DNA from: a virus
Taxonomy: Duplodnaviria; Caudoviricetes
Strand: one strand, 5' to 3'
Virus record (IMG/VR): IMGVR_UViG_3300028327_000538
Location: 1-64,000 of that record
DNA: 64,000 nucleotides
Positions 18,921 through 53,462 of this stretch are shown piece after piece. The translations under genes and the position numbers were made by a program. Under the pieces are notes generated by a model. That model did no database searches. It had not been told where the DNA came from and was given only the letters and a program-made list of their open reading frames with translations. How positions within the stretch are numbered: the stretch's first letter is position 1; every line of letters begins with the position of its first letter.

Positions 18921-18933
18921 AACTATATGATAG

Positions 18934-23597: not shown

Positions 23598-23623
23598 AAT
23601 TATTACCGCCACGGAAGGTCGTA

Positions 23624-27467: not shown

Positions 27468-30400
27468 TTAATACCTCCCCTCACCGGAATCAGCAAGGTT
27501 TCCCGACACGAATGGGAGTACGGGATTGTAGCCGTGAATGTCGGATTTGTAACCGTAGGCGGCTCCTTCCTGCAGCCCTTTCTTGAGATAGCGGTATCCA
27601 AGGTGCGCGGCCCAATCACGGCTTTTGAGCGGCGCCTGTGTCACTCCCTCAAGGTGCGGCGTGTATGAAATGGGCTGGTGCATGGCTACTATCTTTTTGC
27701 CCTTCAGCTTCTGTATTTCATCCTCGCCAAGCCTCGTGCCCTTTTTGAAACCGGCGACGGGCTTGGCGAGAACCATTCCGTAAGCCTGTTCCGCCTGGAC
27801 GTTGTAGGGCTTCATGGCTTTTTGGTTCCATGTGTTTATCGTTGAGAGCGGGAGGACTTCGTTCATAACGGCTGTCGGGTTTGTTCCGGCGTCTGTTACC
27901 TGACCGAAGCCGGCCATGCCGCGCACTACTGTCTCTATGTTCCTGCGGTCGGTTTTGATGCCGGTGCCCTGATATAACTTTTGAAGCGTGGAGGAGATGA
28001 CATTGAGGCCCTTGTTGACGCCCAGGAGTTGCAGGGCCTGTTTGGGATGCGGCAGACCATGTGACAGCAGAGTTCCCTTTTCAACGGTGTCACCCGGTTT
28101 TACCAGGGGTTCCTTGTCGGTGAAGTGCTTGGTGTTGTCCACGAATATCTCGTATCCGCCCGCCGCGCCCTTGTTCACTTTTGTGACCCTGCCGTTGGTT
28201 GTCGCCATCGCCGCCTGTTGCTTGAATGTCTTGGGGGCTTGCAGGAACGAGGCTATGTCCTCGAATCCGCCGAACACACCGCCGCCGCCTGATGTCGTGC
28301 CGCCAAGGTGGAATGTCTTCATGGCGGCCTGTGTCAGAGGTTCCGATATGGCCTGTGCCGACTGGACGCCGATATTGTGGCCTATCTGGTAGAGGTTGCC
28401 CGTGCTGTCATGCCCCGCGCATTTCCGGCATATACCGTTGGCGGACTGGCAGGTGGCGGGCGACCTGACAATGACGGGCGCTTTTTTCTTAGCTATCTGG
28501 ACTGCCATCTCTTTTGTGATGAGCTTGCACTCCTTTGCGAGATAGCGTCCGGCCAGATACGGGTCGTCCGCCGGAAGTTCCAGCCCCTCTTTTGTCTTGC
28601 AGTCCTCCTGCGAGACAACGATGGACATTGACGTGTTGACTATCTCTTTGTTGAGGGCACCGGGCTTGCTCGTCATCAGTTGTTTGTCCAGTGAGCCTTT
28701 ACGCGCTCCGTAGAGCGTAGTCCAATAATCGGGGAAGCTCATGCCCTGGGCGTAATTCGACAGCACCGGACGTTCTATCGGCTTGCCGTCATGATCCTGC
28801 AAAATACCGGGGGCGTAGAGTATCTGTTTGACCTGCTCCGCCGACCCTCTGGCTCCGCTGGCTGCCATGACCACAAAGTTGTTGGTCTTGTCGTCAAGCG
28901 CCTGGGCTTTCACTTTCGCGTCGGCGGCCACCATCTGAGGAAGTGTCCTGGCTCCTTTGTAAGCCTGCGTGACAACGCCGCGGTCTGCCTCAAGGTCTTT
29001 GAGCGACAGTGAAAAGCCTACGTCCGTGGCGGCCTGGTCTCCGATACCCTTGATGGAAGTAACTATGCGGTTGTAGTATTCGGGGTATTTCTTCGCTATC
29101 TCCTCAAGGCGCTTCTCCACATCGGCCTTTGTGATGCCAGCCTTGAATTTGGATACGCGCTTGGGGAGCAGTTTGTTGATTTTACTGAGGCCGTCCTTGC
29201 TTTGGGACATGAGGTGCAGCCCCAGAATGGCCTCCTGATCAGGTGTGTAGTTGAGCCTGTTGTCTCTGGGGTTATAGAGGTTCTTGCTCGGCATCATTTC
29301 AAAGGCTTCTTTCCGGGCTGCTTCTGTGGCCGGAACATGAAGCGTCGCGGTGTCGCCATCAAAGTCCATGCTGAAGGGTTTGACTATAGTGCCGGGCACT
29401 TCGATTGACAGCCCCTTGGTCAGGGTTGGCTGAAAGCCCATGATGGAAAACTTATGCAGAGACGGCGCACGGTTCATCAATACCGGGCGATCAGACATGG
29501 CTGCTTCCAGGGACTTGCGGCCAATGTCGTCCAGCTCCTCAATATGCTTTTCGGCCTCTTTGTGGGCATAGCCAATGTTTTTGAGGTTCTTCATGGCAAA
29601 GGGCTTGTAGATTGTCTTTGCTATCTTTTCAGGTATTGCTATCTGATCCATGTTCAAATTGTTGTTCAGCACGACGGTTGCGCGTCCGGTGAGGTCGACC
29701 TGCTTTCGGACTACCTTTGACTGGAACATACCGCGCTTGGGGCTGCCCTCGCCGGTGATGATTCTTAGAGCGCCTTTCGCGCCCATCTTGCCTGTCTGCT
29801 CCGAAACCGGAGAGGCGACGCCCTGGATCGCGCCCAAACTCTGATACAGTGTCTGTGTCAGTTCAGGACTTTTAGTTCCGCTCTTGAGGGCTTCATTTGT
29901 CACGCCGAGATCGCGATACAGCATATTGAGCGACGAGACTTCCACGTTGCCGCTGGGAAGCTCGAAAGCCGGTCTGAACTGGGGCGGCATGACGGGGACA
30001 ACGCTTGTCATGTAGGCTTCTTTCGGCTTCATGCCGAGTTCTTCAAGGGCTTTAAGCAGCTTCAGCTCCTTTAGCATCGCTTCTTGTTTTGTCTTTGGGG
30101 CGGTCTTGATGCCCTTTGTGATCTGGTCAATCTTGCCTCTGACGTTGATGCCGGACAGCTTTTCGGATATTGCCTTGTGCCCGTCCTCGTCTTTTATGGC
30201 TTCCTGAAACTGTTTCTCAGTCATGCCAAGCAAGGTCTTTACCGGCGAGGCGAACATTGGGTTCACAATCGGATGCGCCAGTGTAATCTTCGACCACTTC
30301 TGCCCGTTTGAGCCGCCTGTCAGAAAGCGGTCAAAGAGTCCGCCCTTGATGGGGTTGCGTTTGTGGTCTAGCATCTTGAAGTTACGCAGCTCGTTTGTCC

Positions 30401-33392
30401 CCGCGTAATCAAGAGCGTCCTTGTCGGTCATGGGGGCCAGTATGCGCTTTGAGCCGTCCGTCCTTACGTTTACACCGGCGGCGTTAAGCGTGGCCTCAAA
30501 TTTGTTGTATATAAAGGGAACCTGCGGCTTGGGAAGCGGCAGGCCGTTTTCGAGGTTCTGCCAGTAATCCGCGTTCCCGTCGCCGCGGACAGTGGAAATC
30601 TCGCTGACGACATTGCGCTTGCCGTGGGAAAGCAGACTGTACAATGTCAGCGGGTCAACGGCCTTTGAGCCGTCCTCGCCGCCTTTGATTGGCTTGTTGT
30701 CCATGTCATACATTCCGACATCCCTGGCTGACACATTCGCTGTAGCGGTTTTGAACAGCTTCTGTATGACGGGCCTGCCGACAAGCACCTTGCCGTATTC
30801 TTTTTTGGTCACTGGGTCTATGAGCGTCTCGGTGTCTGAGATGCCGTGTTTCTTTAGGTCTGCCTTGACTTTTTCCAGGGACTTCTCGTCAAAGTTTTTG
30901 ACTAGGTAGGGCTTTCCCGTCTTTTCGGCTATCTTGCTCGCGGCGGTCTCAATGAGCTGGCCGGGGGTCATGCGTGTGATTACGCTGGCGGGTGAGATTA
31001 TCACCTCGGTGGACGCGCCGCCGGCTGTCTGGGGCATTTCTTTGTCGGCCACTATCGCGGTTATCACGCCCTTGTTGCCGTGACGCATTGAGAGTTTGTC
31101 GCCGACGATGGCGGGGGATTTGGTCTTTATGCTAACCTTGGCGTTGCTTCTGTTGACCGTGGCGGCGACTACCTCGCCGGGATTGAGCGCCGTCCATGTC
31201 TGCGAGGCGTCCTGGTATGGCTGCACAAGCGACCTGTGGAGGCGGTTGAACATCAGGTCTTCATTCGTGCCTGTGGTCTTTTGCAGCGTGAGAGCTGTCG
31301 GGTCTCCGGGTTCGAGGATAACGCCCGGTTTCGCCAGTCCGTTGTCGTCTATCTTTGCCAACTGCTCTTTTGTGTACTTTGTCGGGTACAGGGACATGAA
31401 CTTTTTCTTGTCTATTATAACGTCCTCGCCGTCTTTGGCGATATGAGTCTGAATCATGTGGTTGGACGTGAGCTTTTTGGCGGCTGTTTCTGAAACAACA
31501 ATGCCGTCCTCGAAATTCAATCCTTTCCAGGGCATGTAGGCCACTCTGAGATTGGAGCCGAGGGCCAGTGTGCCGTTCTTTGTGAAATTGGAATCCGCTA
31601 TCAGCTCGTCCTTTTTGAATTTCTGCCCGACTTGCAGCTTGTCTATGCCCTCGTGTGTTAGATAGGATTTGTTTTGCAGTTCAAAGTCTTTGTAGTAAGG
31701 TATTTTTATGTCGCCTTTGCTTGTAGAGAAGATGATATGTGACTTGCTTATCTGCTTAATGGAACCATTTTCGGGCGCTTTAATAGCAAAGCTGGCGTTT
31801 CCTGAGTTGGCTGTTAAGGATTCGATTGATTTTTCGCCCGCCAGCGAAGTTTGAACCAACGGGGCTTCCCTGTTTTCAAGGGATATTGCCTGGGCTATCT
31901 GCCTTGTAGCCATGCCGAGGCGATTGCCCTGGTCGTGGTGCTGAAGCGGTATAAACTGGCTGGCTATGCCAAAGGCTGAGGCTGTGTCGCGCAGTTGGTG
32001 CGTCACTTTGGCGGCGTCAATCTGCACCTGCTTGCCGCGGTGTATGGCCGTGACCTTGCCTTTGAGTTTCTGCTGGGGCAGTGCTATAACTTTGTCAAAA
32101 GCCTGAAGCGCGGAGAGTTCCTCAACCTTGTTGGTCTTGACGTTCTTGAATTTGGATACAATCTCATTGCCTCTTTTACTGGCGTCAACGGTCATATTGA
32201 GGACAACGCCGATCTTGTTGGACTCCGGCGTGTTCACGGGATCAAGGAAGCCAAGGTGCGTGGGGTGCAGGGCCTGGCTGTCGGGCATTATCGCTTCGGG
32301 ATTCTCTATGCCGCCCTCGCCTGTGATTGTGACCTTATCGTTGCCTTTGAGCATCGCTATTGGGTTTATCTGGCTTGGATTTTCTGAGAGCGCGGCGGAG
32401 TTGAAGAACGAGTTGATTGGTTTGCTGAAATACTGAGACGACACTATTTTTGTCAGGTCGTCGGACTTGCGGAGTCTGCTCGCGAGCTGATGGCGGATAC
32501 CGTTCTGGCTTCTCCTGAGCTTCTCGGTGACAAAATCCGGCGTTGAATGCAGTGTCTTAAATGCCAGGGCGTCGCGGTCGTCGGAGTCCTCTATCTTGCG
32601 GCTCACGTTCAGAACCTTTTCCAGGCCGCGGAGAATGAAACCGCCGTCAAGTCTGTCAAACTTCTTGCCCATCGTTATCTCTGTAACCTTGGGGTCGAGC
32701 TTGGCGTTCTTCATTGCCTCGGAGAGTTCCTGAGCCATTTCAGCGACGGACTTTTGTTCGGCGCCGATTGCGTATGGGTTGACCGAGCGGTAAAATCGCC
32801 TGATTTCATCGGACATCTTGGCGTCCGTCAGCTTTTCGGTATTGGCCTTATAGACATCGGCGCCAAATGTGCGCTTCATCTGCTCGTGCGATACGCCCAG
32901 GGCGGACAGAACCGGTATGGCGTTGATTTTGGCCTGATTCACATTGATGGAGAGGTTCTTTGTCTCAGGGTCTATGCCAAGCCTGATTTGCTTGAATCCG
33001 TCGGGATTGACGTGGGCCTCAATCTCGCCGTTCTGCTTGGTGCGGGAATAGAATCCGGGGCGGAGCCGCAACTGGTTGTTGATTTGATACTGGACGCCCT
33101 GCACCACGTACGTTCCGTCGCCGGTCTGCGTGGGGACCGTCGCCAGCTTCATTGTCTTGGTTTCTGTCTTGCCATTGGCCTGTGTAAATGTGACGTCGCC
33201 CATAATCGCCACGCCATAGGTCTTGTCCAGACGCTTGGCCCTGGAAATGGCGTGGTAATTGGTCGGGTCGGCGTTCTCGGTATTGGATACACGCAGGTTG
33301 GAGACGGTGAGTGTCTTGTCGCCCGATTTAATCGGGAATGTGCTTTTTATCTGGTTGATAACAGAATCAATCAATGGCTGGGTTTGGTTCAT
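27468..33392 (-). CDS. Phage DNA-directed RNA polymerase, fused beta + beta' (probably virion-packaged)
   Basis: beta: TPE..KIG, HHDQGNRLGM, AYMPWKGLNFEDGIVVSE, GDKLSMRHGNKGVI, RMTPGQLIE; beta': GGLFD, VPVMPPQFRP, RKQVDLTGR, NRAPSLH, DFDGD, SGARGS, GARKG, RSPATC..IC..C, AQAISEPLTQAAMKTFH. Confidence 0.97.
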   Translation of the reverse strand: MNQTQPLIDSVINQIKSTFPIKSGDKTLTVSNLRVSNTENADPTNYHAISRAKRLDKTYGVAIMGDVTFTQANGKTETKTMKLATVPTQTGDGTYVVQGVQYQINNQLRLRPGFYSRTKQNGEIEAHVNPDGFKQIRLGIDPETKNLSINVNQAKINAIPVLSALGVSHEQMKRTFGADVYKANTEKLTDAKMSDEIRRFYRSVNPYAIGAEQKSVAEMAQELSEAMKNAKLDPKVTEITMGKKFDRLDGGFILRGLEKVLNVSRKIEDSDDRDALAFKTLHSTPDFVTEKLRRSQNGIRHQLASRLRKSDDLTKIVSSQYFSKPINSFFNSAALSENPSQINPIAMLKGNDKVTITGEGGIENPEAIMPDSQALHPTHLGFLDPVNTPESNKIGVVLNMTVDASKRGNEIVSKFKNVKTNKVEELSALQAFDKVIALPQQKLKGKVTAIHRGKQVQIDAAKVTHQLRDTASAFGIASQFIPLQHHDQGNRLGMATRQIAQAISLENREAPLVQTSLAGEKSIESLTANSGNASFAIKAPENGSIKQISKSHIIFSTSKGDIKIPYYKDFELQNKSYLTHEGIDKLQVGQKFKKDELIADSNFTKNGTLALGSNLRVAYMPWKGLNFEDGIVVSETAAKKLTSNHMIQTHIAKDGEDVIIDKKKFMSLYPTKYTKEQLAKIDDNGLAKPGVILEPGDPTALTLQKTTGTNEDLMFNRLHRSLVQPYQDASQTWTALNPGEVVAATVNRSNAKVSIKTKSPAIVGDKLSMRHGNKGVITAIVADKEMPQTAGGASTEVIISPASVITRMTPGQLIETAASKIAEKTGKPYLVKNFDEKSLEKVKADLKKHGISDTETLIDPVTKKEYGKVLVGRPVIQKLFKTATANVSARDVGMYDMDNKPIKGGEDGSKAVDPLTLYSLLSHGKRNVVSEISTVRGDGNADYWQNLENGLPLPKPQVPFIYNKFEATLNAAGVNVRTDGSKRILAPMTDKDALDYAGTNELRNFKMLDHKRNPIKGGLFDRFLTGGSNGQKWSKITLAHPIVNPMFASPVKTLLGMTEKQFQEAIKDEDGHKAISEKLSGINVRGKIDQITKGIKTAPKTKQEAMLKELKLLKALEELGMKPKEAYMTSVVPVMPPQFRPAFELPSGNVEVSSLNMLYRDLGVTNEALKSGTKSPELTQTLYQSLGAIQGVASPVSEQTGKMGAKGALRIITGEGSPKRGMFQSKVVRKQVDLTGRATVVLNNNLNMDQIAIPEKIAKTIYKPFAMKNLKNIGYAHKEAEKHIEELDDIGRKSLEAAMSDRPVLMNRAPSLHKFSIMGFQPTLTKGLSIEVPGTIVKPFSMDFDGDTATLHVPATEAARKEAFEMMPSKNLYNPRDNRLNYTPDQEAILGLHLMSQSKDGLSKINKLLPKRVSKFKAGITKADVEKRLEEIAKKYPEYYNRIVTSIKGIGDQAATDVGFSLSLKDLEADRGVVTQAYKGARTLPQMVAADAKVKAQALDDKTNNFVVMAASGARGSAEQVKQILYAPGILQDHDGKPIERPVLSNYAQGMSFPDYWTTLYGARKGSLDKQLMTSKPGALNKEIVNTSMSIVVSQEDCKTKEGLELPADDPYLAGRYLAKECKLITKEMAVQIAKKKAPVIVRSPATCQSANGICRKCAGHDSTGNLYQIGHNIGVQSAQAISEPLTQAAMKTFHLGGTTSGGGGVFGGFEDIASFLQAPKTFKQQAAMATTNGRVTKVNKGAAGGYEIFVDNTKHFTDKEPLVKPGDTVEKGTLLSHGLPHPKQALQLLGVNKGLNVISSTLQKLYQGTGIKTDRRNIETVVRGMAGFGQVTDAGTNPTAVMNEVLPLSTINTWNQKAMKPYNVQAEQAYGMVLAKPVAGFKKGTRLGEDEIQKLKGKKIVAMHQPISYTPHLEGVTQAPLKSRDWAAHLGYRYLKKGLQEGAAYGYKSDIHGYNPVLPFVSGNLADSGEGRY

Positions 33393-33429
33393 ATATTAAT
33401 TTTAACACGCATTGATGTATAATATAGTT

Positions 33430-33871
33430 ATGCGCTATCCACAATCAAATCAGTTGCCTATACCTTTAACAGGGGGGGCTTCCAGAGGTCGATTGGGGCA
33501 GAAAGATAGTTTTTGGCAAATATATCCGAGGCGAGGCTGATAACGGATACTTTCCCAAAACATTTGCCGCAGATCAAAGCCGCTCTTGCCCCGTCTTCAA
33601 AGCCCCCGAAAACGGGCTGGTCATGTGTGTCTTCCACAACGACACAGTTAGTAGTTACATATCTTTTTCTTTTTATATAAACAGAGACAAAAACAATTTC
33701 GATTGGCGTGACCGCGTATGCGTCGCGCGCGCGGTTAAATCAGACTCCAAAAGCATATGGATACCAATCAACAAAGACGATGTGTTTAGCGTGGATATAT
33801 TTTCGTCCAACGCGATAACAGTGGACTGGCAACACGCCTTCGCTATGTTTTGGCCGTATAGGACAAGCTGA
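33430..33871 (+). pseudogene. Fibre-tip-like gene frameshifted at a G7 tract (candidate phase-OFF allele)
   Basis: MRYPQSNQLPIPLT-G7(33472-33478), then the +1 frame LPEVDW...DNGYFP...FKAPENGLV...IPINKDD...AFAMFWPYRTS*, homologous to 57613..58167; G6 or G9 restores the frame. Confidence 0.75.
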
Positions 33872-33976: not shown

Positions 33977-34813
33977 GTGATTACGAAGGTTGGAAATATT
34001 CTAAAAATTGCTGATATTTATCAGTTCAACACTAACTCTAGTGATGATTATTTAGAAGGTTATGATAGCTATGGCGGTAGAATATGGAAAAACAATAAAT
34101 ATCATAGCCCGAACTGGTCGCTACTTGCTAAAGAAGACCCAAGCGGCAAAGAATTAAATTTTGAACCGATTGAAAAATTCAAAAAAAACAAAAAAATATA
34201 TAACATGGCATCAAAATTAGTAAATGGCGCGTATTCGCCCTCATATTATGATCGCGTTCACGACGTGTATGCCATTAATTACGATGAGATTCCTCCTGGT
34301 GATACTCCTGTATTAATTAGGCCGTCTAATGATTCATCTAATGCTAAAAGTTCTGTGAAAGGAATAGTAAAAGGCGTTGCTCTAGGAGGGGTTAGCGGGG
34401 CAATTCTTGGCAGAGCGTTGTCCGGCAGTATTCGCGGCGCTGTTAGTGGCGCTGTTTCAGGTAGCATTCTTGGAGGAGGGATAGGCGCTCTCCACAAAAA
34501 AGCCAACGAGTTGTCCCGTAAAGAGCGCAGAGACGCTTTTGAGAGTAAAATATTAAATCCGCAAACGACTAAAGATTACGCAAGAACTTTTGGAATGTTC
34601 GGTGCAGGTATAGGTGCTGGGCAGTCACTCAAGAAGATAATTGAACACCGCAAAGAAATAGGCGAAATGACTCGACATTTACCAGGCGGAAGAAAGGCTG
34701 CTATTGTTGGTCTTGGTATCGACACCCTTGCAAATGCTGCGTTATTAGGCGGTATCGGTGCTGGTGTTGGCGCTGCTACCGGAACATTCATAAACAGAAA
34801 ACGTAAGACCTAA
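33977..34813 (+). CDS. Glycine-zipper cargo-like protein with (M)ITKVGNILKIA leader
   Basis: GTG 33977 after AAAGGAG; several GxxxG helices; HKKA. Confidence 0.7.
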   Translation: MITKVGNILKIADIYQFNTNSSDDYLEGYDSYGGRIWKNNKYHSPNWSLLAKEDPSGKELNFEPIEKFKKNKKIYNMASKLVNGAYSPSYYDRVHDVYAINYDEIPPGDTPVLIRPSNDSSNAKSSVKGIVKGVALGGVSGAILGRALSGSIRGAVSGAVSGSILGGGIGALHKKANELSRKERRDAFESKILNPQTTKDYARTFGMFGAGIGAGQSLKKIIEHRKEIGEMTRHLPGGRKAAIVGLGIDTLANAALLGGIGAGVGAATGTFINRKRKT

Positions 34814-34834
34814 TAATATTTTAAACAGTAAGGA

Positions 34835-36316
34835 TCATTGAGTTGGCAACTTTGCCGCTCTCTGTTCTAAAGCATCTAGCCTGACAACAAGACTTTTGAT
34901 TTCATCAATCTCTTTGTCTGCTATGCCGCTCCACAGTTTTGTGTGTTTATCCAAAATCATCCATTTGAGTGCAGGAACACCATTCCAAACAAGCCCCATC
35001 CAAGCTGGATAGTTGAGGGTAAGCGGGTTCCTGTTACTAGCGATAAACTTACCTGCGTTCACAGCAGCAAATGCGCCATATGCGATTGACAACATCACGC
35101 GAAAACGTGGGTTTAAGTTTAGTGGCAGAGTATCGTTCACTATGGTTTTACAAAAATCAGCATCATAAAAATATAGTTGCTTGGCGGCATATAGAACCCT
35201 CATAAGCACTTCCATAACGGTCACGGGAAAACTCATAGTTACAAAATGCCGAAAATCGTATCCATGAATATACATCCACTCAACTTGTGCGCCAAAAGTT
35301 GAATCGCTAACCGGAACAAATTCGACCATTCTTAGCAAAGACATAAATGGGACTGGTAGTCCCATGCCCCTATTACCCATTGCTGATGGAGCGTTCACAT
35401 CAGAAGCAAGATGTCCTAACATTAACCGCATTTGCGCCCAGGGTGAATTGTAGGGCATAGTTACCGCATCGCTCTTAAACCTCTGTAATTTACCATTATA
35501 CACTGCCGTAAGGGTATTGTTCTTCATATCCAACGGGCCGAATAAAAAGCCTAGTATCGGATCGTGTGAGAGGGCGCGAAGTCTGTGATTGGTGGGGCTA
35601 ACAACCTTACCCGGTGAACCAATTAGATTTTGACTAACTGATGTATCCGCCGATCCAATTTTGAAGCTGTTACTTAATTTGGCTGTCTTATCGGGAGGGA
35701 AGATTGCATTAAACATTTTTTGTGTTGCTTTGTTAAATGGGCCATTAACGGGCGTAGTAAACTTTGTTATGAAAGGCGTTGGCATACCAACGTAAAAAAA
35801 GTCCAATCCCCCGCCAATAATTCCGCATAAACCGGCTATAGCATAGTCATATACGTCCAAACCATAACGAGCATTAAAATCCTCGATAGACTTATCAATA
35901 CCTTGCTTGACAGCAGCAAGATCATCAATAGATAAAATGTCTTCTATCTTTACCTTATTAGGGTAACGTGCCTCAGCTTCAGCCAATATCTTTTCGGGTT
36001 CAATATAACATAACTGAATGCTTTGGCTCATTTCATCATATATTTTTTGTCTGCGTTCTTCTATTAATTTTGGCAATATATTTGTATTTTTGGTCAAGAC
36101 GGCTAATCGAGTCTTTAATTCTTTTATTTCTATGTCAATTTCATCATGAGATGACTCTATAGATTTTTGGCGCTCCTGTAGAAGTCGAATAGCCTTCATC
36201 GTTTTTTGGATTTCGGTATTATTCGACTTCTGTGACTTTTTGTTCTTTTGTTGTGCGTTACTTAAACTGCAACCACAAATTATAGATAGCGTTATGACGG
36301 TTATCAAAAACTTCAT
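34835..36316 (-). CDS. Putative lipoprotein/membrane protein with coiled coil
   Basis: MKFLITVITLSIICGC lipobox-like start; AT-rich moron; HRLRALSHDPILG. Confidence 0.6.
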   Translation of the reverse strand: MKFLITVITLSIICGCSLSNAQQKNKKSQKSNNTEIQKTMKAIRLLQERQKSIESSHDEIDIEIKELKTRLAVLTKNTNILPKLIEERRQKIYDEMSQSIQLCYIEPEKILAEAEARYPNKVKIEDILSIDDLAAVKQGIDKSIEDFNARYGLDVYDYAIAGLCGIIGGGLDFFYVGMPTPFITKFTTPVNGPFNKATQKMFNAIFPPDKTAKLSNSFKIGSADTSVSQNLIGSPGKVVSPTNHRLRALSHDPILGFLFGPLDMKNNTLTAVYNGKLQRFKSDAVTMPYNSPWAQMRLMLGHLASDVNAPSAMGNRGMGLPVPFMSLLRMVEFVPVSDSTFGAQVEWMYIHGYDFRHFVTMSFPVTVMEVLMRVLYAAKQLYFYDADFCKTIVNDTLPLNLNPRFRVMLSIAYGAFAAVNAGKFIASNRNPLTLNYPAWMGLVWNGVPALKWMILDKHTKLWSGIADKEIDEIKSLVVRLDALEQRAAKLPTQ

Positions 36317-36317
36317 A

Positions 36318-37280
36318 TTATTTTTGTGAAATCGCACGAGCTTCTAGCATAAATATTTGTCCTTTCAGGATAGCTATCTCATTTTTATAATATTCCGCAT
36401 TCGCAATTAAACGATCTTGTACGCTATACAACCGTGAAATCGCTACATTTAATGCGGCGGATAGTTTAGCCATTCTCTTCTTATCTTTGTAATAATCGTG
36501 CGCGATGTAAGCTCCACCTCCAAGAACAACAACTGGAATCACTACCACGCCCACGCCAGTTGCCATGCCACCACCAGCAATACTGCCAAGTGTCGCTAAC
36601 CCACTTGTAAGACCTGCGGCGGAAAGTCCATTGACCCCCGCAAACCATAACGCTGTATATGATATTGCTCCGCCTCCAACCAGCCCAGTAATTCCAGCTA
36701 AAGCGGTATCAAGACCAGGGGCAGACCTTTCGAGTTCTTGAAAAATAGCGAGAATCTTTTCGTTAGCCTCCTGAATTTCTGCCGAGACCTGTGCGCTATT
36801 TAGGGTGTCAGTCTTCCCTGATGCTAGAACCTGTAACCTAATCACTGCGGATGAGTTGCCATTCTTAGCCGCCATAGCATAGTATTTCGCTGCTTCTTGG
36901 CGATTTTTCCCTATCCCGTCCCCAAGATCGTACATCAAAGCCAATGAAAATTGTGCGGTCGGATGTCCTTTTTCAGCCGCTTTTTGATACCAGTAGGCAG
37001 CTTTTGGCTTGTTCTGTTGTGTCCCCTCGCCTTTCTCATACATAGCTCCAAGAGTGTACATTGCCATCAAATCGCCGTCTTCCGCGGCAAGCAAGCACTG
37101 TCCAAAGATTTCCTGTGGTGTGGGGTTGGGCGCTTCTTCTCCCTTTGAAGACTGTAGCTGTTCTTTAGTTTCTTTACTTTGTGCGCGAGAGCATCCCCAA
37201 TGACTACCAGCGCAACCAACACAAAGCAATAACGCGATTAGAGTTACAGAAACGCACGACTCAACTTTTCTTTTAGACAT
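36318..37280 (-). CDS. Exported Sel1-repeat protein with C-terminal Gly-rich membrane domain
   Basis: LLCVGC signal; AMYTLGAMYEKGEG..KAAYWYQKAAEKGH..AQFSLALMY; GGAGGAGAGG RBS. Confidence 0.8.
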   Translation of the reverse strand: MSKRKVESCVSVTLIALLLCVGCAGSHWGCSRAQSKETKEQLQSSKGEEAPNPTPQEIFGQCLLAAEDGDLMAMYTLGAMYEKGEGTQQNKPKAAYWYQKAAEKGHPTAQFSLALMYDLGDGIGKNRQEAAKYYAMAAKNGNSSAVIRLQVLASGKTDTLNSAQVSAEIQEANEKILAIFQELERSAPGLDTALAGITGLVGGGAISYTALWFAGVNGLSAAGLTSGLATLGSIAGGGMATGVGVVVIPVVVLGGGAYIAHDYYKDKKRMAKLSAALNVAISRLYSVQDRLIANAEYYKNEIAILKGQIFMLEARAISQK

Positions 37281-37293
37281 ACCTCTCCTCCTT

Positions 37294-37544
37294 ACCAAGA
37301 GACGTACATCCTACCAGAAATGCCTTATGTTTTCTCCCTGGATTGTTTCAGGGCGATCAGGATGGACGAGAGACCGGTCAGGAAAGCGGCGCCGTCGTCC
37401 AGCCATCCGACTACAGGAATGACATCCGGGATAAAGTCTACAGGAGAAACAATATATACCAGGCTGGCTATGGGGATTAAATATCTTGTGACGATTTTAC
37501 GCATGTCTCTCACCAAGAGACGTACATACTACCAGAAATGCCTT
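37294..37544 (-). repeat. 33-bp direct repeat (1 mismatch) flanking the DUF1232 gene; contains an extended -10
   Basis: ACCAAGAGACGTACAT(C/A)CTACCAGAAATGCCTT at 37294-37326 and 37512-37544; minus strand TGgTAG(G/T)AT. Confidence 0.85.
37325..37516 (-). CDS. DUF1232/YkvA family membrane protein
   Basis: YIVSPVDFIPDVIPVVGWLDD signature. Confidence 0.9.
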   Translation of the reverse strand: MVRDMRKIVTRYLIPIASLVYIVSPVDFIPDVIPVVGWLDDGAAFLTGLSSILIALKQSREKT

Positions 37545-37553
37545 GTATTTTCT

Positions 37554-37961
37554 TCACTTCTTTGTCACGAGAGACGCCATTATTGAGTCAATCCACGATT
37601 TAATACGATCTTCCGATTGTTTGAGCATGTCGAGTATTTCTTTTTGTGTTGGGATTTCTTTCATACGGTGTCCAATGCTTTCCAGTTTTGCCGTGAAAGC
37701 CCCGCGCATTTCCTTAATTTCAGAAATCGCTTCGTCGTGCGCTTTTAGCTTATCCCAAAGATCCTTGTTGCGCTTATCATCTCTCGCTTTTATTTCCAGT
37801 ATTTGCATCTCAAAGTGTTTCTTCTGCGCTTCAAGCTGAGACTCAAAGGATGCTTCCATTTTTTCCATAGCGCGTGAGTTAGAATTCCAAATATAGGCGG
37901 CAAATATGCCCAATAGACCAACCGCGCTGTTCATTATCCATTCGGTGTTAATCGTTGACAT
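37554..37961 (-). CDS. Single-TM coiled-coil protein of the lysis cassette
   Basis: N-terminal TM and coiled coil; follows the spanins. Confidence 0.5.
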   Translation of the reverse strand: MSTINTEWIMNSAVGLLGIFAAYIWNSNSRAMEKMEASFESQLEAQKKHFEMQILEIKARDDKRNKDLWDKLKAHDEAISEIKEMRGAFTAKLESIGHRMKEIPTQKEILDMLKQSEDRIKSWIDSIMASLVTKK

Positions 37962-38271
37962 TGTCTCTCCTTTGTTGTGTTTGTGTCTGGTTTAGATACG
38001 CCTTGAGACGTGTTTCCAGATCCAGCCCCCAGGCCGTAAGAAGTTCTCTGTCAGCGAGCAGTATCTTTGCGAGGTCTTGGATTGTGAGTTCTTTAAGGTC
38101 TTTGAGATTCGCGCTTGGCAGAAGCGGGCGCGGGGGTATGGTTGGTTCCGGTGCGGGGACGACTATGTATTCCCGGATTACCAGTGTTTCAGGCTTCGGC
38201 GCGGGAGGGCACGGTTTGACGCAACCGAGAACGCCAATAGCCAAACATATAATAGTTATCACGCTTTTCAT
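37948..38271 (-). CDS. o-spanin (Rz1-like lipoprotein)
   Basis: Lipobox VLGC, Pro-rich mature part, directly after the i-spanin. Confidence 0.7.
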   Translation of the reverse strand: MKSVITIICLAIGVLGCVKPCPPAPKPETLVIREYIVVPAPEPTIPPRPLLPSANLKDLKELTIQDLAKILLADRELLTAWGLDLETRLKAYLNQTQTQQRRDNVND

Positions 38272-38280
38272 ATCTATCCC

Positions 38281-38652
38281 CTAATTGGGCGCCAGACGAT
38301 TGACTACAACTTGAGCTTCGGCAACGGCCCAGGCTATAAACTCTTCCGCGTCGTCTGATACGGGCTTGTCTAAGATTGCCTGCGCGTGCAGTTCGCCTTT
38401 GACGCGATGCGTGGCGGCTATAACGGCGGCGTTTGAGATTGCTTCGGACTGCGATTTGGCGTCGGCTTTTATACTCTCTATCAGTTCGGCTTGAGGAACA
38501 ACGAGGCGGGCCAGTTGGTCTTTTTCGGCCTGTAGTTTCCCAATCTCGGAGTTTAGTCCGGCTATGGTTTTGTCCTGTTTGCTGGTGCGCCGTGCGCTCA
38601 CAACCACAATGGTTATGAGAATGACAATTAGAAGCAGCCATATTTTATTCAT
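38281..38652 (-). CDS. i-spanin (Rz-like)
   Basis: N-terminal TM anchor followed by a coiled coil. Confidence 0.65.
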   Translation of the reverse strand: MNKIWLLLIVILITIVVVSARRTSKQDKTIAGLNSEIGKLQAEKDQLARLVVPQAELIESIKADAKSQSEAISNAAVIAATHRVKGELHAQAILDKPVSDDAEEFIAWAVAEAQVVVNRLAPN

Positions 38653-38891
38653 TTTTTACCCGACTCTGCCAACATAGTAAGCATCCCATTGCATTGCGCT
38701 TTGTATATATCGCGTTCTTCTTTCAGATTTTCGTTTTCTCGCCGCAAACTTATGATTTGAAGCTCAAGCTGCTCTGCTCTTGCTTTTATCTCTTCGAGCG
38801 CCCGCGCTTTAACTAAAAGTTCGCAGACAAATCTGTTGTGTCTGTTACGAAACATCCAAAGGCTATCCATTATCCATCTCAAAAATTTCAT
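38649..38891 (-). CDS. Coiled-coil hypothetical protein
   Basis: Coupled within the lysis operon. Confidence 0.5.
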   Translation of the reverse strand: MKFLRWIMDSLWMFRNRHNRFVCELLVKARALEEIKARAEQLELQIISLRRENENLKEERDIYKAQCNGMLTMLAESGKK

Positions 38892-39256
38892 TGTTCTTTT
38901 GCCTCAGCAAAGTTACCTGCCGTAAGCATTCCAAAAGAGCCAATAATAATAAAAGTAGCAAAATCTCTAAGAGGGCCGTTTATTTCAAACCACAATCCCA
39001 AAATACACAATACAGCCCCCAAAAGAAAAGCGAAGAAAGCAATCATCCGCTTAGTGCTTGGAGCGTTTGGACGTTCACAAAGTCCTCTTAAAACAAATGG
39101 AATAATACCAGGGGGCAAAGAGGGCCATTCTTCTTTAGAGTGAGCCTCCTCTTCTTCTTTAATAATTTCCTTTGGAGGATTATTTAAGGCGTCCTCCAAA
39201 GGCGGAAGAAAGGCGAAATCATCCCCTTCCGTTTTCTTTTTATCCTGGCGTTTCAT
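38888..39256 (-). CDS. Putative holin (2 TM)
   Basis: PSTKRMIAFFAFLLG...two TMDs; first gene of the spanin operon; leaderless promoter. Confidence 0.55.
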   Translation of the reverse strand: MKRQDKKKTEGDDFAFLPPLEDALNNPPKEIIKEEEEAHSKEEWPSLPPGIIPFVLRGLCERPNAPSTKRMIAFFAFLLGAVLCILGLWFEINGPLRDFATFIIIGSFGMLTAGNFAEAKEQ

Positions 39257-39282
39257 ATGGTTTATTATAGCACGGCTATACC

Positions 39283-39317
39283 CGCAAAAACACTGGATAT
39301 TTTGTTATAAACATTAT
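39283..39317 (+). promoter_or_regulatory. Bipartite phage promoter-like motif, copy 3
   Basis: CGCAAA-N11-TTTTGTTATAAACATTAT, then GGGAA..TTCCC hairpin and TAAGGAGG RBS. Confidence 0.7.
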
Positions 39318-39356
39318 GAGGGAATAATAACTTTCCCCATTTTATAAGGAGGTTTT

Positions 39357-39707
39357 ATGCAAAAATCCAATAACGAACTGGTTCACGAGATTGTCCACGA
39401 ATTTGAACAATCCTGCGATAACCTGAATCGCGCTATTGATTTCGCGTTGACGTCGTTTGCCGAGAAGCTCGACGAAATGCACATTGACAGCAATGATGTG
39501 CAGGAAATCAAAAACATTCTGTCCACCCAGACAAGCGCGCTCCTGAAAATCGTCAAACTCGGCGACTACAGCAACGTGCCGGACAGAGAGGAACTGATTG
39601 CGCTGACGACGGAAGCAAAGGGTCTGGCGACATCGTTCAAAGACATGACGCGCTTATGCCGAATCGGCATGAAAGCCCTGGTTCACTTCGTCAAAACGCA
39701 GTTCTGA
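39357..39707 (+). CDS. Monocistronic helical early-like protein
   Basis: Perfect RBS; own promoter motif and terminator. Confidence 0.7.
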   Translation: MQKSNNELVHEIVHEFEQSCDNLNRAIDFALTSFAEKLDEMHIDSNDVQEIKNILSTQTSALLKIVKLGDYSNVPDREELIALTTEAKGLATSFKDMTRLCRIGMKALVHFVKTQF

Positions 39708-39717
39708 AGCAAAACAA

Positions 39718-39745
39718 AGGCCGCCAACATTGGCGGCCTGTTCTG
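39718..39745 (+). terminator. Hairpin terminator
   Basis: AGGCCGCCAA-ca-TTGGCGGCCT followed by GTTCTGTT. Confidence 0.65.
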
Positions 39746-39765
39746 TTGTTCCTAAGAGATTTTGA

Positions 39766-39867
39766 CTATTTGAAGATACTACGGAAGAAGCGCACTGCCT
39801 CTTCGTCTTCGGGTGTTCTTACCACGAAGAAAAGTATTATGCTTCCTACTATTTCGACTATTCCCAT
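39766..39867 (-). CDS. 33-aa hydrophobic peptide, copy 2
   Basis: MGIVEIVGSIILFFVVRTPEDEEAVRFFRSIFK*; GGAG RBS. Confidence 0.7.
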   Translation of the reverse strand: MGIVEIVGSIILFFVVRTPEDEEAVRFFRSIFK

Positions 39868-40149
39868 TTGAGGCTCCACAAAAACAATGGTTGGGAAAGG
39901 ATTTAGCAGCAACTAACTGTAAGTTGCCGCCAAGTATGTAACGGTATATATCTCTTCAGAGTGTTCTTGTCTGTTCCTTCTATTAGTTTTATCTTGTTTC
40001 CTGCGCGACCACAGCCTCTACGGGCTGTCGCTTTACCGGGTCGTCGTTGTCAGCCACGTTACCTCCTGTAAAAAACACATGGTAACAACAATATAGAAAG
40101 GGGGAAGCCCCTTTCTTTTAGCTATAATTAAAACAGAAAGGAAAACTAT

Positions 40150-40635
40150 ATGTTAAGCAACTTGATTGTTATATTACTGATTGTTGGGGCGGCGTCACTT
40201 TTTTATTGGAATGTCGCGCAACCGGTTCTGTTGCGCCCCCATGTCTATCGTTTATCATCTCTACGTGACAGTCTACGTTGGGAGATGATTGAAGGCCGAC
40301 TTGACATAGACGACAAAAACGCCGCGACCCTAAGCCGCATTATTGAAGCAATCACAGCCAATGCTCAAACGATGAGCATATTGCATTTCTTTTGGTTCCG
40401 CTTCGTAAACCGCAATAGGGAGATGCCCGATAATATTAAGCGATACTGCCGCGATGCGCCCGATACAATCAAAAAGCTGAATCGTATCGCAATGGAGACA
40501 TCTATCGCTATTATGTTGATCAACGCTCCTGTGTTCAGCGTAATCTTTTCGACAGCGCTGTTGCGAAAGCGGCTAAAGGCTCTGGGCACTGCTGATGACT
40601 TTGTTGTGCTCTTTAATAATCCAGGAGTTGTTTAG
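40150..40635 (+). CDS. Membrane hypothetical protein
   Basis: N-terminal TM; AAAGGA RBS. Confidence 0.6.
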   Translation: MLSNLIVILLIVGAASLFYWNVAQPVLLRPHVYRLSSLRDSLRWEMIEGRLDIDDKNAATLSRIIEAITANAQTMSILHFFWFRFVNRNREMPDNIKRYCRDAPDTIKKLNRIAMETSIAIMLINAPVFSVIFSTALLRKRLKALGTADDFVVLFNNPGVV

Positions 40636-42777
40636 CGTCTGGTCTTTGGCGGCGTCAACTATTGAAGTCGAAAGCATTCGTTCTCCGGCGGAGCTGTCCA
40701 TTAAGCGCATCAGGTTTTTAATGGGTTCGGTGTCCAATCTCCGGCCCTTTTCATCGCGAGAAAGATCGACATACAGCTCATTGGCTATCCTTATTCCTGA
40801 ATAGTCGGATATTTTCATTATGTTGTAGGCGTCTGGAGGGTTGGGGCCTACGCAACTGTGGAAGATGGCGAAGTCCTCGAAAGATGCTATTTTTCTTTTT
40901 GTGTTTTTTCTGTAATCCTCTTTGAATCTGCTTTTGTATATCTTTGCAATTTCTTCCGCCTGTTTTGTTGGTTTTTTGAAGTCGCCAACCGCCATAATCG
41001 GCTCACTGCCAATCAGAGCCATAGAATAGTCAAGCGAAGTCTTAGCTTGCCCGGTCGGGGAACCAAGTATCGGGTCGTGCGCCAGGGCCGTATTCGTTAT
41101 GTCTTCATGGCAGTAACGCGGATAGCTAAGTTGCAAAACGATTGAATAGCTGCCCTGGGCGCTCCAGGACTTTGAGCAGCTCTCGCACCAGGCCATGATG
41201 TGAGGGCCGCTGTCGCTGATGATAAGAACACTGTGGCCGGGCACAATATCAACCGTTGACGTGACCTGGACTGAAATAGAGCGGTTCTTGAAATAGGATT
41301 GGAGGAATTCATAATTCAGAAGATTTTTAAGTGTGGAGAGTTGTTTTTGGGTTTTCTCAAAATCTTCTGAGGTCGAAAATTTTTTGACTTCGGCTTCTGC
41401 TTTGGCAATGTCTTCTTTCTTCGCGTCTTTTTTTTCTTTTAACGTCTCAAGTCTTTTTTGCGCGGCGATATACTCCGGGAACGAGGCCCTCATGCTGGAC
41501 TCAAGACTGTCAAGCGATTGCTGGTAGGCGGTGTTAAACTGGACGTCAAAATGGCTCGCGCCGTATTCATGTTCGTACGGGGAATATCCGCGATCCGTCC
41601 TCCATAACATATGTTCGCTTTTCGGCGCGGAGAATGAGCGAAAATGTCCGTCCGGGTCGTCGAATTTAGGCCCCACAACCACTGTGGTTGTGAATGGCGC
41701 ATCCACGAATGGAATCCTTACTTTATACCTGTCCCGCGTAGGCTCGCTTAAATAATTGTAGCTCATTGACATGGAGACAACTTGATCCGGGAACAGGATA
41801 TTGCATTTTGGAGGTATGGCTATTATAGACTTTGGTTTTACAAAAAACTCGGCCATGCCGGGGTATTTGCGGTTATTTAAAGCGAGAATGTCTGCTGTGG
41901 CGCTGCCTTTGCTACTGCTCTCATAGTCTTTGGAAGCTCCGAGCGTCATTGGTAGAAATGTGGCTCTCGGAATATTGTAGATGTCGTAATATCCATACGA
42001 AAGCACTCTGAACGCTATATCAAGGTACGAGTTCAGCCCCTGAAGGTCTCCGCAGTTAAGAGCCGTTTCGCCAATAATGTCAAAGGTCTCCTGGGTGTTT
42101 AAGAACTTCTTGGTGAACTCATTCGTGGGCACACCATACAATTTACGATTCAGGCCGTAATTCGTCAGAAACTTTCTGTACCACCAGGGGTTTGCCCGTT
42201 CTGTTTGCTCCAGCAACGGCTTGGCTCCGTCTCTGCTACAGATAAAGCCCTTGCCATTATAGAAGTAACGGTATCCCGTTATGCCGTCGCTTTTTTTGCC
42301 GTACGGCTCGTTGGTCAATACGCACGCGGTCGCCATCCCGACATCGTACGAGTTCTGCTTTACGATCTGGGAGAAGTAATTCGTAAGAACGCCGTCGATC
42401 CTGATATTGAGTGAGGTGTCCATTCCTCTGTTGTCCAGCATTTCAAGCTGAGTGATATAGGCGTCCAACTGTTTGCGCTGGCTCCATATAATTCCGTCTG
42501 TGTAACCGGTAAAATTAAACTGAACGCTTCCGTTGACGTCTTTGCTTTCGCTCTTGGCTACAAGCGCTCCGTCAAACTCCAATTCTGACGGGCTGCTTTC
42601 CGTGTCCTGGCGCCATATCTGGAACTTTGTATAGCGTCTGAGATTGATAATCCACGGAGAATAGGGAATACTTACATCGCATCGCGCCAGTGTGTTAAAT
42701 CCGCTATGCACCTGAAAAGCAATCATAGGGGTTTTAACACCGGCTATGAATAGGTGGAATTTTGGGGTGTGGATCAT
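40573..42777 (-). CDS. Putative baseplate hub/tail protein
   Basis: 734 aa; N-terminal LFIAGVKTP...FDG; C-terminal DIVPGHSVLII..G.H...CSKSWS beta-barrel pattern typical of hub proteins. Confidence 0.5.
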   Translation of the reverse strand: MIHTPKFHLFIAGVKTPMIAFQVHSGFNTLARCDVSIPYSPWIINLRRYTKFQIWRQDTESSPSELEFDGALVAKSESKDVNGSVQFNFTGYTDGIIWSQRKQLDAYITQLEMLDNRGMDTSLNIRIDGVLTNYFSQIVKQNSYDVGMATACVLTNEPYGKKSDGITGYRYFYNGKGFICSRDGAKPLLEQTERANPWWYRKFLTNYGLNRKLYGVPTNEFTKKFLNTQETFDIIGETALNCGDLQGLNSYLDIAFRVLSYGYYDIYNIPRATFLPMTLGASKDYESSSKGSATADILALNNRKYPGMAEFFVKPKSIIAIPPKCNILFPDQVVSMSMSYNYLSEPTRDRYKVRIPFVDAPFTTTVVVGPKFDDPDGHFRSFSAPKSEHMLWRTDRGYSPYEHEYGASHFDVQFNTAYQQSLDSLESSMRASFPEYIAAQKRLETLKEKKDAKKEDIAKAEAEVKKFSTSEDFEKTQKQLSTLKNLLNYEFLQSYFKNRSISVQVTSTVDIVPGHSVLIISDSGPHIMAWCESCSKSWSAQGSYSIVLQLSYPRYCHEDITNTALAHDPILGSPTGQAKTSLDYSMALIGSEPIMAVGDFKKPTKQAEEIAKIYKSRFKEDYRKNTKRKIASFEDFAIFHSCVGPNPPDAYNIMKISDYSGIRIANELYVDLSRDEKGRRLDTEPIKNLMRLMDSSAGERMLSTSIVDAAKDQTLNNSWIIKEHNKVISSAQSL

Positions 42778-43733
42778 AGGTTTTGCTGGAATGTGCGGCC
42801 AATTCTCTTTGCGCCGCCCAGCAGTCTCGAATTTGAATTCGCGAAACTCTGTTTCCAGGTCAGACCGCCGCCAACACCTTTTGCAACGGAATGTCCGTAA
42901 TCAAAAGCGCCCCCCATTATGGCTCCCCGGCCAAAACCCTTGCCGAAAGCCCCTAATCTGGACTCGCCCGGCTGGGCGGTTGCCGCTGAAACTGTTCCGT
43001 CCAGAGCGCCCCATCCCAATGCTGATTTTGCCGACCCGGCAAACAAGCCTTTGTTTTTATACAGGGCTTTGCCTGTCGTCGCTACAGCACCAAGAAGCGA
43101 AGATACTTTGGAAAACGCGGGAAGAGCTTCTTTATAAGTCTGGTTAAGCCGCTGGAATGGAGTGAACTGACCCTTGGGCATCGTAGTTCTTTTGATGTGG
43201 TCCATGTGCGACCCCACTCCCATTGCTCCACCAAACACAGCGCCCCATTTGGCTCCGCTCAACGCGCTCTGCATTTTCTCGCCGCTTGGTGCTGAAATGG
43301 CGTTTATGCCGGCATTAACGCCGGCGTCGACGGCTCCGTGAGCTATGACTTTTTTAGTTACGGGATTTGACCACAATCTAGTTCCAAGCCTCGCCAATTG
43401 GGGAACAAAGGCTTTCTTTTCTATTGACCCTTTCGGGCCAAGCGCTCTATAGGCTAAGGCTCCTCCCAATACACTGGCGCCAACACCTAACATGTATCGA
43501 CCATATCGTTGATGTAGTTTCTTTGGATCATAAGAGAACCCCAAAATGGGCTTTGCGTATGACGTGCCCTTTTCTGTTTGATCGAGTAAATCTCTAATGG
43601 CAAAAGCCGCTGTGCCAGCGGCCAAAGCTGAACCAACATTACGGGCATTGAGTGCGCGATGAGAAGTTTCCTTGACGTTGGACGAGTCACCCAAGCGCTT
43701 GATAGGATCTGGCAACTTCTCTTTGATGGGCAT
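42774..43733 (-). CDS. Glycine-zipper K-x-A cargo-like protein with two internal repeats
   Basis: IEKKAFV; ISAPSGEKMQSALSGAKWGAVFGGAM / ATAQPGESRLGAFGKGFGRGAIMGGAF. Confidence 0.65.
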   Translation of the reverse strand: MPIKEKLPDPIKRLGDSSNVKETSHRALNARNVGSALAAGTAAFAIRDLLDQTEKGTSYAKPILGFSYDPKKLHQRYGRYMLGVGASVLGGALAYRALGPKGSIEKKAFVPQLARLGTRLWSNPVTKKVIAHGAVDAGVNAGINAISAPSGEKMQSALSGAKWGAVFGGAMGVGSHMDHIKRTTMPKGQFTPFQRLNQTYKEALPAFSKVSSLLGAVATTGKALYKNKGLFAGSAKSALGWGALDGTVSAATAQPGESRLGAFGKGFGRGAIMGGAFDYGHSVAKGVGGGLTWKQSFANSNSRLLGGAKRIGRTFQQNL

Positions 43734-44200
43734 TAAATTCTTCCGACAAGGGACTGGGCTTTTTTTGCGAGATTCCTTGAGCTTTGAAGCATGGCAGCGC
43801 TGTTTTGCAGGTTGTCTATTTCGTTTTTAGAGAGCGCTTTTGACACTGTTTCAGCGGTTTTGACTTTACCTAGTCCCAATTTGTTATTAACCTTAGCTGA
43901 TCCCATAGCACCACCGGCGGCTCCGCCAATAACCGCTCCTTTTAATGCACTCTTTATTCTGTGGTCTTTATCGCCAAGAGTACCGCCTATAATCGCTCCC
44001 GGAACGGCTCCTTTAATAACGCCCAAACCAGTACCGCCAATCAATGAGGCGGTTGCTCCTTCCGCTCCCATTCTGGTTAATCCAGCGGCTGAACCAAGAA
44101 CTCCGCGCCTTCCAAGCCAAGCTCCTATTTGTCTAATTAAAGACTCTTTAACAGCGGCTTCTTTTGTTAAGGATAATATATTGCCAACTTTTGTTATCAT
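43733..44200 (-). CDS. Glycine-zipper cargo-like protein with MITKVGNILSLTKEA leader
   Basis: Leader shared with 33977..34813; GAGG RBS. Confidence 0.7.
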   Translation of the reverse strand: MITKVGNILSLTKEAAVKESLIRQIGAWLGRRGVLGSAAGLTRMGAEGATASLIGGTGLGVIKGAVPGAIIGGTLGDKDHRIKSALKGAVIGGAAGGAMGSAKVNNKLGLGKVKTAETVSKALSKNEIDNLQNSAAMLQSSRNLAKKAQSLVGRI

Positions 44201-53339: not shown

Positions 53340-53462
53340 AGGACAAAATCTGCGCTGGAAGCTGTTTAAGTTCTGTCGAATACTCTTCAATATATTACTT
53401 ATTGTTGCGATAATATATTTTGCCAAGGACTTTTGGCGCTTGTTTTTGCGCTGGGTATCCTC

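Follow-up and report, generated by a model that had tools for sequence, protein, structure and literature searches.

How two otherwise dissimilar proteins of one phage come to begin with the same eight residues after Met, and what this shared N-terminus may do, is the question raised by two genes, here termed A and B, in the first 64 kb of the 96,165-bp IMG/VR record IMGVR_UViG_3300028327_000538, which stems from an uncultured phage (this whole stretch of 64,000 nucleotides is referred to as the window). A preliminary description of the window had proposed that the octapeptide ITKVGNIL and a K-x-A that follows it form a cleavable capsid-targeting tag. This is still the best reading after our analysis: we put the probability at about 55% that A and B are precursors with a capsid-loading propeptide comparable to that of phage T4, written in a different protease code. 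The reading draws on leaders that end in the motif of a head protease, on sets of such leaders in related genomes, and on virion proteins of the same build in Salmonella phage Arash. The genes and leaders concerned are as follows:

33977-34813, plus strand: gene A, 278 residues, net charge +15, with a 12-residue leader, a domain of ~100 residues, and three glycine-zipper stretches.
33977-34003, plus strand: shared leader of A, start codon and ITKVGNIL.
33998-34012, plus strand: ILKIA, residues 8-12 of A, of the form hydrophobic-x-K-x-A, a candidate head-protease site.
44200-43733, minus strand: gene B, 155 residues, net charge +14, with a glycine zipper, a 15-residue leader, and three motif sites (residues 11, 61, and 144).
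44174-44200, minus strand: shared leader of B, Met and ITKVGNIL.
44156-44170, minus strand: LTKEA, residues 11-15 of B, the end of the B leader.

The leader positions and the eight identical residues reported in the preliminary description were both correct, and the K-x-A endings, ILKIA in A and LTKEA in B, are real. A starts at the GTG at 33977, downstream of an AAGGAG Shine-Dalgarno site, a start also used by two independent public gene calls, while B starts on the minus strand at the ATG at 44200, with GAGGT upstream. A six-frame scan of the whole 96,165-bp record, which also considered loose matches, found ITKVGNIL only twice, in A and in B. Among 2,504 candidate starts, the A/B leader pair scores 43/42 compared to 22 for the runner-up, a gap that rules out a chance match. 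Outside the record, scans of IMG/VR and Joint Genome Institute (JGI) metagenomes with back-translated DNA revealed the exact octapeptide at no other protein start; the 19 IMG/VR and 6 JGI matches were all due to chance, being internal to proteins, in short open reading frames (ORFs), or in an unrelated protein. Since it is absent from all other protein starts in these collections, the wording ITKVGNIL appears to be private to the window phage.

It could be asked whether the nucleic acid rather than the peptide is under constraint, i.e., whether the conserved stretch is a translational operator or a structure of the start region, given that it begins exactly at the start codon. However, 7 of the 27 leader bases differ between A and B, including the GTG and ATG start codons themselves; 6 of the 8 shared codons differ, all of them synonymously and with zero nonsynonymous changes, and the DNA 5' of the two start codons, including the ribosome-binding regions, is unrelated. 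A role at the RNA level is therefore very improbable, and we rejected it on this substitution pattern. Because the codons have changed synonymously and the upstream DNA is unrelated, the conservation lies at the level of the peptide: purifying selection acts on the shared leader, and its conservation has outlasted a long divergence. The saturation of synonymous change with eight residues perfectly kept argues for a role of the octapeptide that goes beyond cleavage.

After residue 9, A and B diverge, and each reaches its K-x-A within a few residues. The corresponding pattern, hydrophobic-x-K-x-A, is over-represented in the proteomes of the window phage and its cultured relatives Arash and Vibrio phage D69, and the enrichment is gone when K is swapped for E, R, Q, or D. 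It is the head-assembly block that accounts for this excess, with up to nine sites per ~300 residues, and per-protein shuffles in the three phages yielded p values of 0.0005-0.003 for the head maturation protease, the two genes preceding it, and the small genes following it. In the window, motif-bearing genes include:

13612-15072, minus strand: head maturation protease, 486 residues, phrog_18299, four motif sites.
15148-15885, minus strand: head-block protein, four sites (p 0.001), C-terminally a single Gly/Ala-rich segment.
15953-17134, minus strand: head-block protein, 393 residues, four sites, with a conserved glycine-zipper segment in its C-terminal part.
12807-13587, minus strand: two small acidic proteins downstream of the protease, motif-dense and scaffold- or core-like.
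11057-12163, minus strand: major-capsid-protein-like gene, likely true start ATG 12100, with an N-proximal V-K-T-A site at 12023-12037.
21909-23612, minus strand: protein of 567 residues with six motif sites (p 0.0005).

The placement of these sites is conserved as well. The Arash counterpart of the capsid-like gene is annotated as major capsid protein gp226, and ~25 residues into the capsid proteins the sites are aligned, reading LVKEA in Arash, LTKEA in D69, and V-K-T-A in the window phage. The protease is 37-40% identical to the Arash and D69 proteins and shares two of its four sites with them in alignment; across genomes, aligned protease sites occur near the N-terminus and directly after the catalytic domain. 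In other phages, substrate processing and self-processing by head proteases take place at such positions. We further used a profile of the three proteases to retrieve 61 related head loci from IMG/VR, and most of them contain the motif at 3-5 times the shuffled frequency (z 5-13), with flat controls; five short or distant loci yielded z 1.9-2.9, and ORFs of unrelated viral contigs, which served as a control, z 1.6. The consensus is L-[E/V/T]-K-x-A-[S/A/G], and it is very probable that proteases of this family use hydrophobic-x-K-x-A as their processing motif. In a phmmer search against all PDB chains, the protease had no match, and mapped cut sites are lacking for the relatives that tblastn identified (Arash, D69, Gordonia phages, and cluster C mycobacteriophages); therefore, its specificity cannot be read from relatives.

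Apart from these results, it should be noted that the 393-residue head-block protein is represented in Arash by a pair of neighbouring genes, gp220 and gp221, and likewise by a pair in D69, reflecting either a fusion here or a split there; its C-terminal part, including the glycine-zipper segment, is homologous to Arash gp221. In addition, a two-gene unit is duplicated at 24342-24922 and 53433-54039, and its members at 24578-24922 and 53671-54039 have strong hydrophobic-x-K-x-A sites within their first 45 residues.

To score the leader ends independently of the window phage, a position matrix was built from 76 sites of Arash and D69 only and applied to 27,431 positions of the window phage's proteins. 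The end of the B leader, LTKEA, ranked first of all 27,431 positions (16.3 bits), a score reached anywhere in only 4 of 100 shuffled proteomes; the same residues form the N-proximal site of the D69 capsid protein. The end of the A leader, ILKIA, ranked 39th with 6.4 bits, and at or above this score there are 38 sites in the real proteome compared to 13 in shuffled proteomes and 19 in unrelated ORFs. B contains three sites in 155 residues (nominal p 0.025). Residues 3-30 show an enrichment of the simple pattern (z 3.4), yet a hand count of the top matrix sites gave no excess in the first 25 residues, and we do not rely on this positional signal. Each leader is composed of eight conserved residues followed by a probable protease site.

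The preliminary description had suggested a search for the leader pattern in related phages, which recovered leaders that end in the motif, though not the exact octapeptide. We counted at least 17 genes with the start MIIKLA or a near variant, i.e., Met plus the motif, in the closest complete relative (IMGVR_UViG_3300022863_000014, hereafter G001; 168,567 bp, 37% protease identity). A cluster at 43.7-53.9 kb comprises fourteen of these; the others are located at 65.6 kb (one gene) and in the head block at 155.8-156.3 kb (two genes). All 17 proteins are net basic (+3 to +44), nine are rich in glycine zippers, and they are mutually unrelated by BLAST, while their leader codons vary at synonymous positions. 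MITKVG, the first six residues of A and B, lines up with MIIKLA. Smaller sets occur elsewhere: pairs starting with MWTKEA in the genome G002 and with MNALLKIA in G003, with G003 and D69 also having pairs with a common leader of ~14 residues that ends in L-x-K-x-A. The bodies of the G002, G003, and D69 pairs are mostly basic and Gly-rich. A short leader, a predicted cleavage site, and a basic glycine-zipper body are a trait of this lineage, and A and B are its local form.

Virion proteins of this build are found in Arash. Mass spectrometry identified gp97 in virion preparations with 24 peptides and 1,060 spectra, and the head-block glycine-zipper protein gp221 was detected as well (PMC10585845). 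The sequence of gp97 comprises 439 residues with a net charge of +64, thirty glycine-zipper triads, and an N-proximal LVKAA.

Behind the leaders, A and B both contain GxxxG-rich stretches. B narrowly passes the Pfam model PF05433, Glycine zipper 2TM (24.8 bits compared to a gathering threshold of 24.2 bits). A third gene, C, which directly follows B on the minus strand and is described below, has no Pfam match, and neither has A; both show weak NCBIfam matches to glycine-zipper segments, far under the cut-offs, and all three proteins weakly match models of glycine-zipper lipoproteins. The hydrophobicity of the GxxxG-rich stretches of A and B is borderline for membrane helices, with a maximum of 1.5-1.6 in 19-residue Kyte-Doolittle windows. 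With +15 and +14, A and B are about as basic as DNA-binding internal proteins.

Two alternatives have to be weighed against this evidence. According to the first, A and B are diverged paralogues, and the shared nonapeptide is simply the part of them that is best kept: it would be a propeptide clipped by the head protease that holds no address, with any targeting brought about by the K-x-A site or by the body. Without their leaders, A and B still align above window-shuffled controls (z 3.7, 1 of 200), as do A and C (z 3.1), which is in line with common descent, although this residual similarity may reflect GxxxG spacing, which shuffling destroys. Moreover, the leader of G001 is Met plus the motif alone, suggesting that the site may suffice, and the alignment of MITKVG with MIIKLA can be taken in the same sense. 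What speaks for an additional role is that the eight residues upstream of positions P5-P1 are perfectly kept while the rest has diverged, which exceeds what a protease site usually needs. We regard descent as paralogues with an addressless propeptide as a real possibility, albeit an unlikely one.

The second alternative sees A and B as proteins of the host membrane that act in lysis control, superinfection exclusion, or envelope remodelling, with the N-terminus as a cytoplasmic interaction or regulatory motif and the K-x-A as a coincidence. It takes up the match of B to Glycine zipper 2TM, the weak lipoprotein-model matches of A, B, and C, and the convergent orientation of A relative to a series of predicted lipoprotein and membrane genes at 34835-39256, among them some that resemble spanins by eye. 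However, neither A nor B has a Sec signal peptide or lipobox, neither leader contains Cys, and no 19-residue Kyte-Doolittle window above 1.0 begins before residue 125 in A or residue 44 in B. Furthermore, no position in the proteome fits the matrix, which was trained on other genomes, better than the B site does, relatives repeat the combination of leader, site, and basic glycine-zipper body, and B is translationally linked to a probable virion gene. Because A lacks a signal sequence and fits the protease motif, an envelope role is less likely for this protein, and we consider the membrane explanation improbable for the pair.

The convergent run itself (34835-39256, minus strand) comprises predicted envelope proteins. 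These include two lipoproteins of 500 and 326 residues (the latter with Sel1 repeats and a glycine zipper), a small membrane protein of 63 residues that belongs to a PHROG family of unknown function, and a pair at 38281-38652 and 37948-38271 that resembles, by eye, an inner-membrane spanin and its outer-membrane partner, an identity for which PHROG searches gave no support. The endolysin gene (7939-8514) is distant from this pair.

In the capsid-loading reading, A and B would be made as precursors with N-terminal propeptides of 12 and 15 residues, consisting of Met-ITKVGNIL followed by hydrophobic-x-K-x-A, the probable recognition motif of the head maturation protease. In analogy to the T4 capsid-targeting sequence (CTS), this propeptide would direct each precursor to the prohead during assembly, possibly through docking on the protease or on the scaffold core, and would then be clipped off, so that small, very basic glycine-zipper proteins stay in the capsid with the DNA. 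We infer that the protease cuts at K-x-A and that A and B are packaged. The octapeptide may in addition have a targeting function beyond the cut site, and the mature proteins may be ejected, insert into membranes, or form a channel for DNA or RNA polymerase, as the preliminary description supposed.

Several observations weigh against this reading. The exact octapeptide starts no other protein in IMG/VR or the JGI metagenomes, and it is found on only two genes in the available 58% of the genome. Its first motif-like element, ITKVG, closes in Gly and not Ala, and the site of A scores modestly, with an Asp after the Ala that is uncommon among the training sites. A adjoins a membrane/lipoprotein gene cluster and not virion genes. 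The weak likeness of A and B past the leader, given above, means that the octapeptide could be the best-kept part of paralogues, and A and B have no detectable homologues, so that the leader cannot be traced through evolution. We found no paper reporting a cut in any member of the lineage. Finally, the Arash virion list comprises 116 proteins, including ribonucleotide reductases and helicases (PMC10585845); because some of the 116 are surely contaminants, presence in this list is weak, supportive evidence.

The search for homologues was extensive. For A and B, tblastn against 50,697 phage records and searches of five related viral genomes returned none, a word search of 5.8e9 proteins found each only itself, and the ESM Atlas yielded nothing useful (scores of at most 0.82). 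In an exhaustive HMMER search of 1.84e9 representatives, A again found only itself, and otherwise generic glycine-zipper segments; relatives of the ~100-residue domain that follows its leader were undetectable in protein searches. With an hhalign probability of <1%, we rejected the Arash gp221 family as homologous to A and B. Single-sequence AlphaFold predictions were uninformative, with a predicted local distance difference test score (pLDDT) of 49 for B and 35 for the 734-residue protein encoded near it.

B is the first of three genes that overlap at their ends, with the start of C overlapping the stop of B and the start of the 734-residue gene overlapping the stop of C:

42774-43733, minus strand: gene C, 319 residues, net charge +27, with a glycine zipper and one strong site at residue 104.
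40573-42777, minus strand: protein of 734 residues, probable counterpart of Arash gp8 and of a 760-residue protein of D69.

C is homologous to the leader-bearing G001 protein at 65569 (BLAST 57% over 30 residues, E 6e-7; Smith-Waterman z 9.8). The 734-residue protein has hidden Markov model (HMM) matches at the same map position in Arash and D69, and the comparison with the counterpart by hhalign resulted in a probability of 60% (E 8.7e-5, 234 columns); it is probably the counterpart of gp8, a virion protein of Arash according to mass spectrometry (PMC10585845). Among 5.8e9 proteins, it has two homologues (42% and 32% identity), both on tiny contigs, and no related loci turned up. Arash gp8 has gained two cell-wall hydrolase domains, which are present neither in the 734-residue protein nor in the D69 counterpart.

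The preliminary description had also named C and four further genes as encoding similar helices, a claim that holds in part. C is truly alike. The genes at 15148-15885 and 15953-17134 encode head-block proteins with one Gly/Ala-rich segment each, while those at 8511-9134 and ending at 63584 have generic Gly/Ala stretches whose similarity is not above that of shuffles. The last of these is listed here with its extent in the window:

63584-64000, minus strand: 3' part of the gene for a basic protein of 165 residues, which starts past the window at 64081 and has a C-terminal Gly-rich segment.

Its N-proximal FEKQA ranks third in the proteome for the motif. The 207-residue protein at 8511-9134 (minus strand) lies by the endolysin gene and has two short Gly/Ala-rich hydrophobic segments and a His/Gly-rich C-terminal tail. 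It contains zero motif sites and may be lysis-related rather than a member of the leader system.

A second group of proteins with similar N-termini is a family of four, which is found in the window at 57613-58167 (minus strand) and past it in the record at 68495-69852 (plus strand). Its members begin with MRYPQSNQL, one of them only nearly so, and at 33412-33871 (plus strand), in the interval that separates A from the RNA polymerase gene, there is a frameshifted remnant of the family. Similarity extends over the full length of the members, which marks the family as ordinary paralogy and not as a grafted leader. One member shows a faint match to a minor tail protein.

With regard to the phage as a whole, CheckV estimates the record to be 58% complete, implying a genome of ~165 kb. 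Further landmarks in the window are:

7939-8514: endolysin.
17349-18938: large terminase.
27468-33392, minus strand: RNA polymerase, a fused beta-beta' single chain of 1,974 residues.

Polymerases with ~30% identity to this chain are found in the Vibrio phages D69, D148, and D181 and in Salmonella phage Arash. Other genes common to the window phage, Arash, and D69 are few: the terminase, the protease, the capsid-protein-like gene, and a small number of virion genes account for nearly all of them. The region matching the fused polymerase is divided into two or more genes in D69 and Arash, and homing endonucleases lie near the RNA polymerase region in D181 and D148. Virion mass spectrometry of Arash places RNA polymerase subunits among the proteins of highest abundance (PMC10585845).

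A broader scheme can be drawn from these data, which we advance tentatively and regard as doubtful in its entirety. In a lineage of phages with genomes of ~165-200 kb that includes Arash and D69, a Lys-x-Ala head-protease code and the short leaders that end in it would load fast-evolving, very basic glycine-zipper proteins, which would accompany the DNA on ejection and become inserted in the host envelope, either to line or open a path for the genome and a virion RNA polymerase or to act as membrane effectors; A and B would be the pair of the window phage, and the octapeptide would then be a second, genome-specific layer of address in addition to the cut site.

If capsid loading by such leaders is true, the set of packaged proteins in a large and mostly uncultured lineage could be read from sequence via a leader that ends in the motif. 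Furthermore, head-protease specificity would lie next to Lys-x-Ala and not after Glu, for which we found no description in the literature. It might also be tried to load foreign proteins into capsids of the Arash type by means of the tag, a use for which the T4 CTS has served. The glycine-zipper cargo also raises the question of whether internal proteins of contractile-tailed phages are membrane-active on entry. For the window phage the gain is modest, comprising two genes with a leader private to it, and the much larger leader family of G001 is a better system for studying the tag.

Among known systems, the T4 CTS and the propeptides of phiKZ-like phages offer the closest analogies to the proposed mechanism. 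According to PMC3012670, the CTS of the internal proteins IPI, IPII, and IPIII ends in a site of the gp21 prohead protease, and its removal by gp21 is attributed to Mullaney and Black 1996 where that work is cited in PMC10052503. As in T4, a short N-terminal peptide is found on small basic proteins that are otherwise dissimilar, it ends in what is probably the motif of the head protease, and this motif is dense in scaffold or core proteins and also occurs in the protease itself and in the capsid protein. In contrast to T4, where the motif is (L/I)-x-E, the motif of the window phage is hydrophobic-x-K-x-A, and hydrophobic-x-E is not enriched in its genome (z 0.2-1.0). The leader sequence is unrelated and shows no evident likeness to the T4 CTS. 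The protease has no match to solved structures and groups with its counterparts in Arash, D69, cluster C mycobacteriophages, and Gordonia phages. The cargo is rich in glycine zippers, and only two genes carry this particular leader.

In phiKZ-like phages and SPN3US, propeptides on head and ejection proteins are cut by gp175/gp245, as described in PMC10052503, PMC5694885, and PMC7411985. These are likewise large phages in which many head and internal proteins have propeptides with repeated protease motifs, and they carry a virion RNA polymerase and ejected proteins. Unlike the leaders of A and B, their propeptides are long and not shared between proteins, and their RNA polymerase is split and not a fused beta-beta' chain. 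The phiKZ-type motif ends in Glu (A/S/G-x-E). A and B have nine residues in common before their sequences part, with hydrophobic-x-K-x-A at the end of both leaders, and this motif is concentrated in the head proteins of more than 60 related genomes; since motif, leader, and protease family all differ, the system is, as judged by sequence, a member of neither the T4 family nor the phiKZ group.

The encapsulin cargo-loading peptides are similar in that a short peptide docks cargo on the inner face of an HK97-fold shell, and the signal LTVGSLRR of Myxococcus xanthus, given in PMC5959871, bears a loose likeness to the leader over five or six residues ([IL]-T-(K)-V-G-[SN]-[IL]), which we note as a lead. 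Unlike the leaders described here, encapsulin signals are usually C-terminal and are not cleaved. The nearest parallels are the leader sets of G001 (MIIKLA), G002 (MWTKEA), and G003 (MNALLKIA). Their wording differs from genome to genome, and the set of the window phage is set apart by having two genes with an extra octapeptide before the site. With these relatives, it has in common the same protease family, the same motif, and basic, often glycine-zipper cargo.

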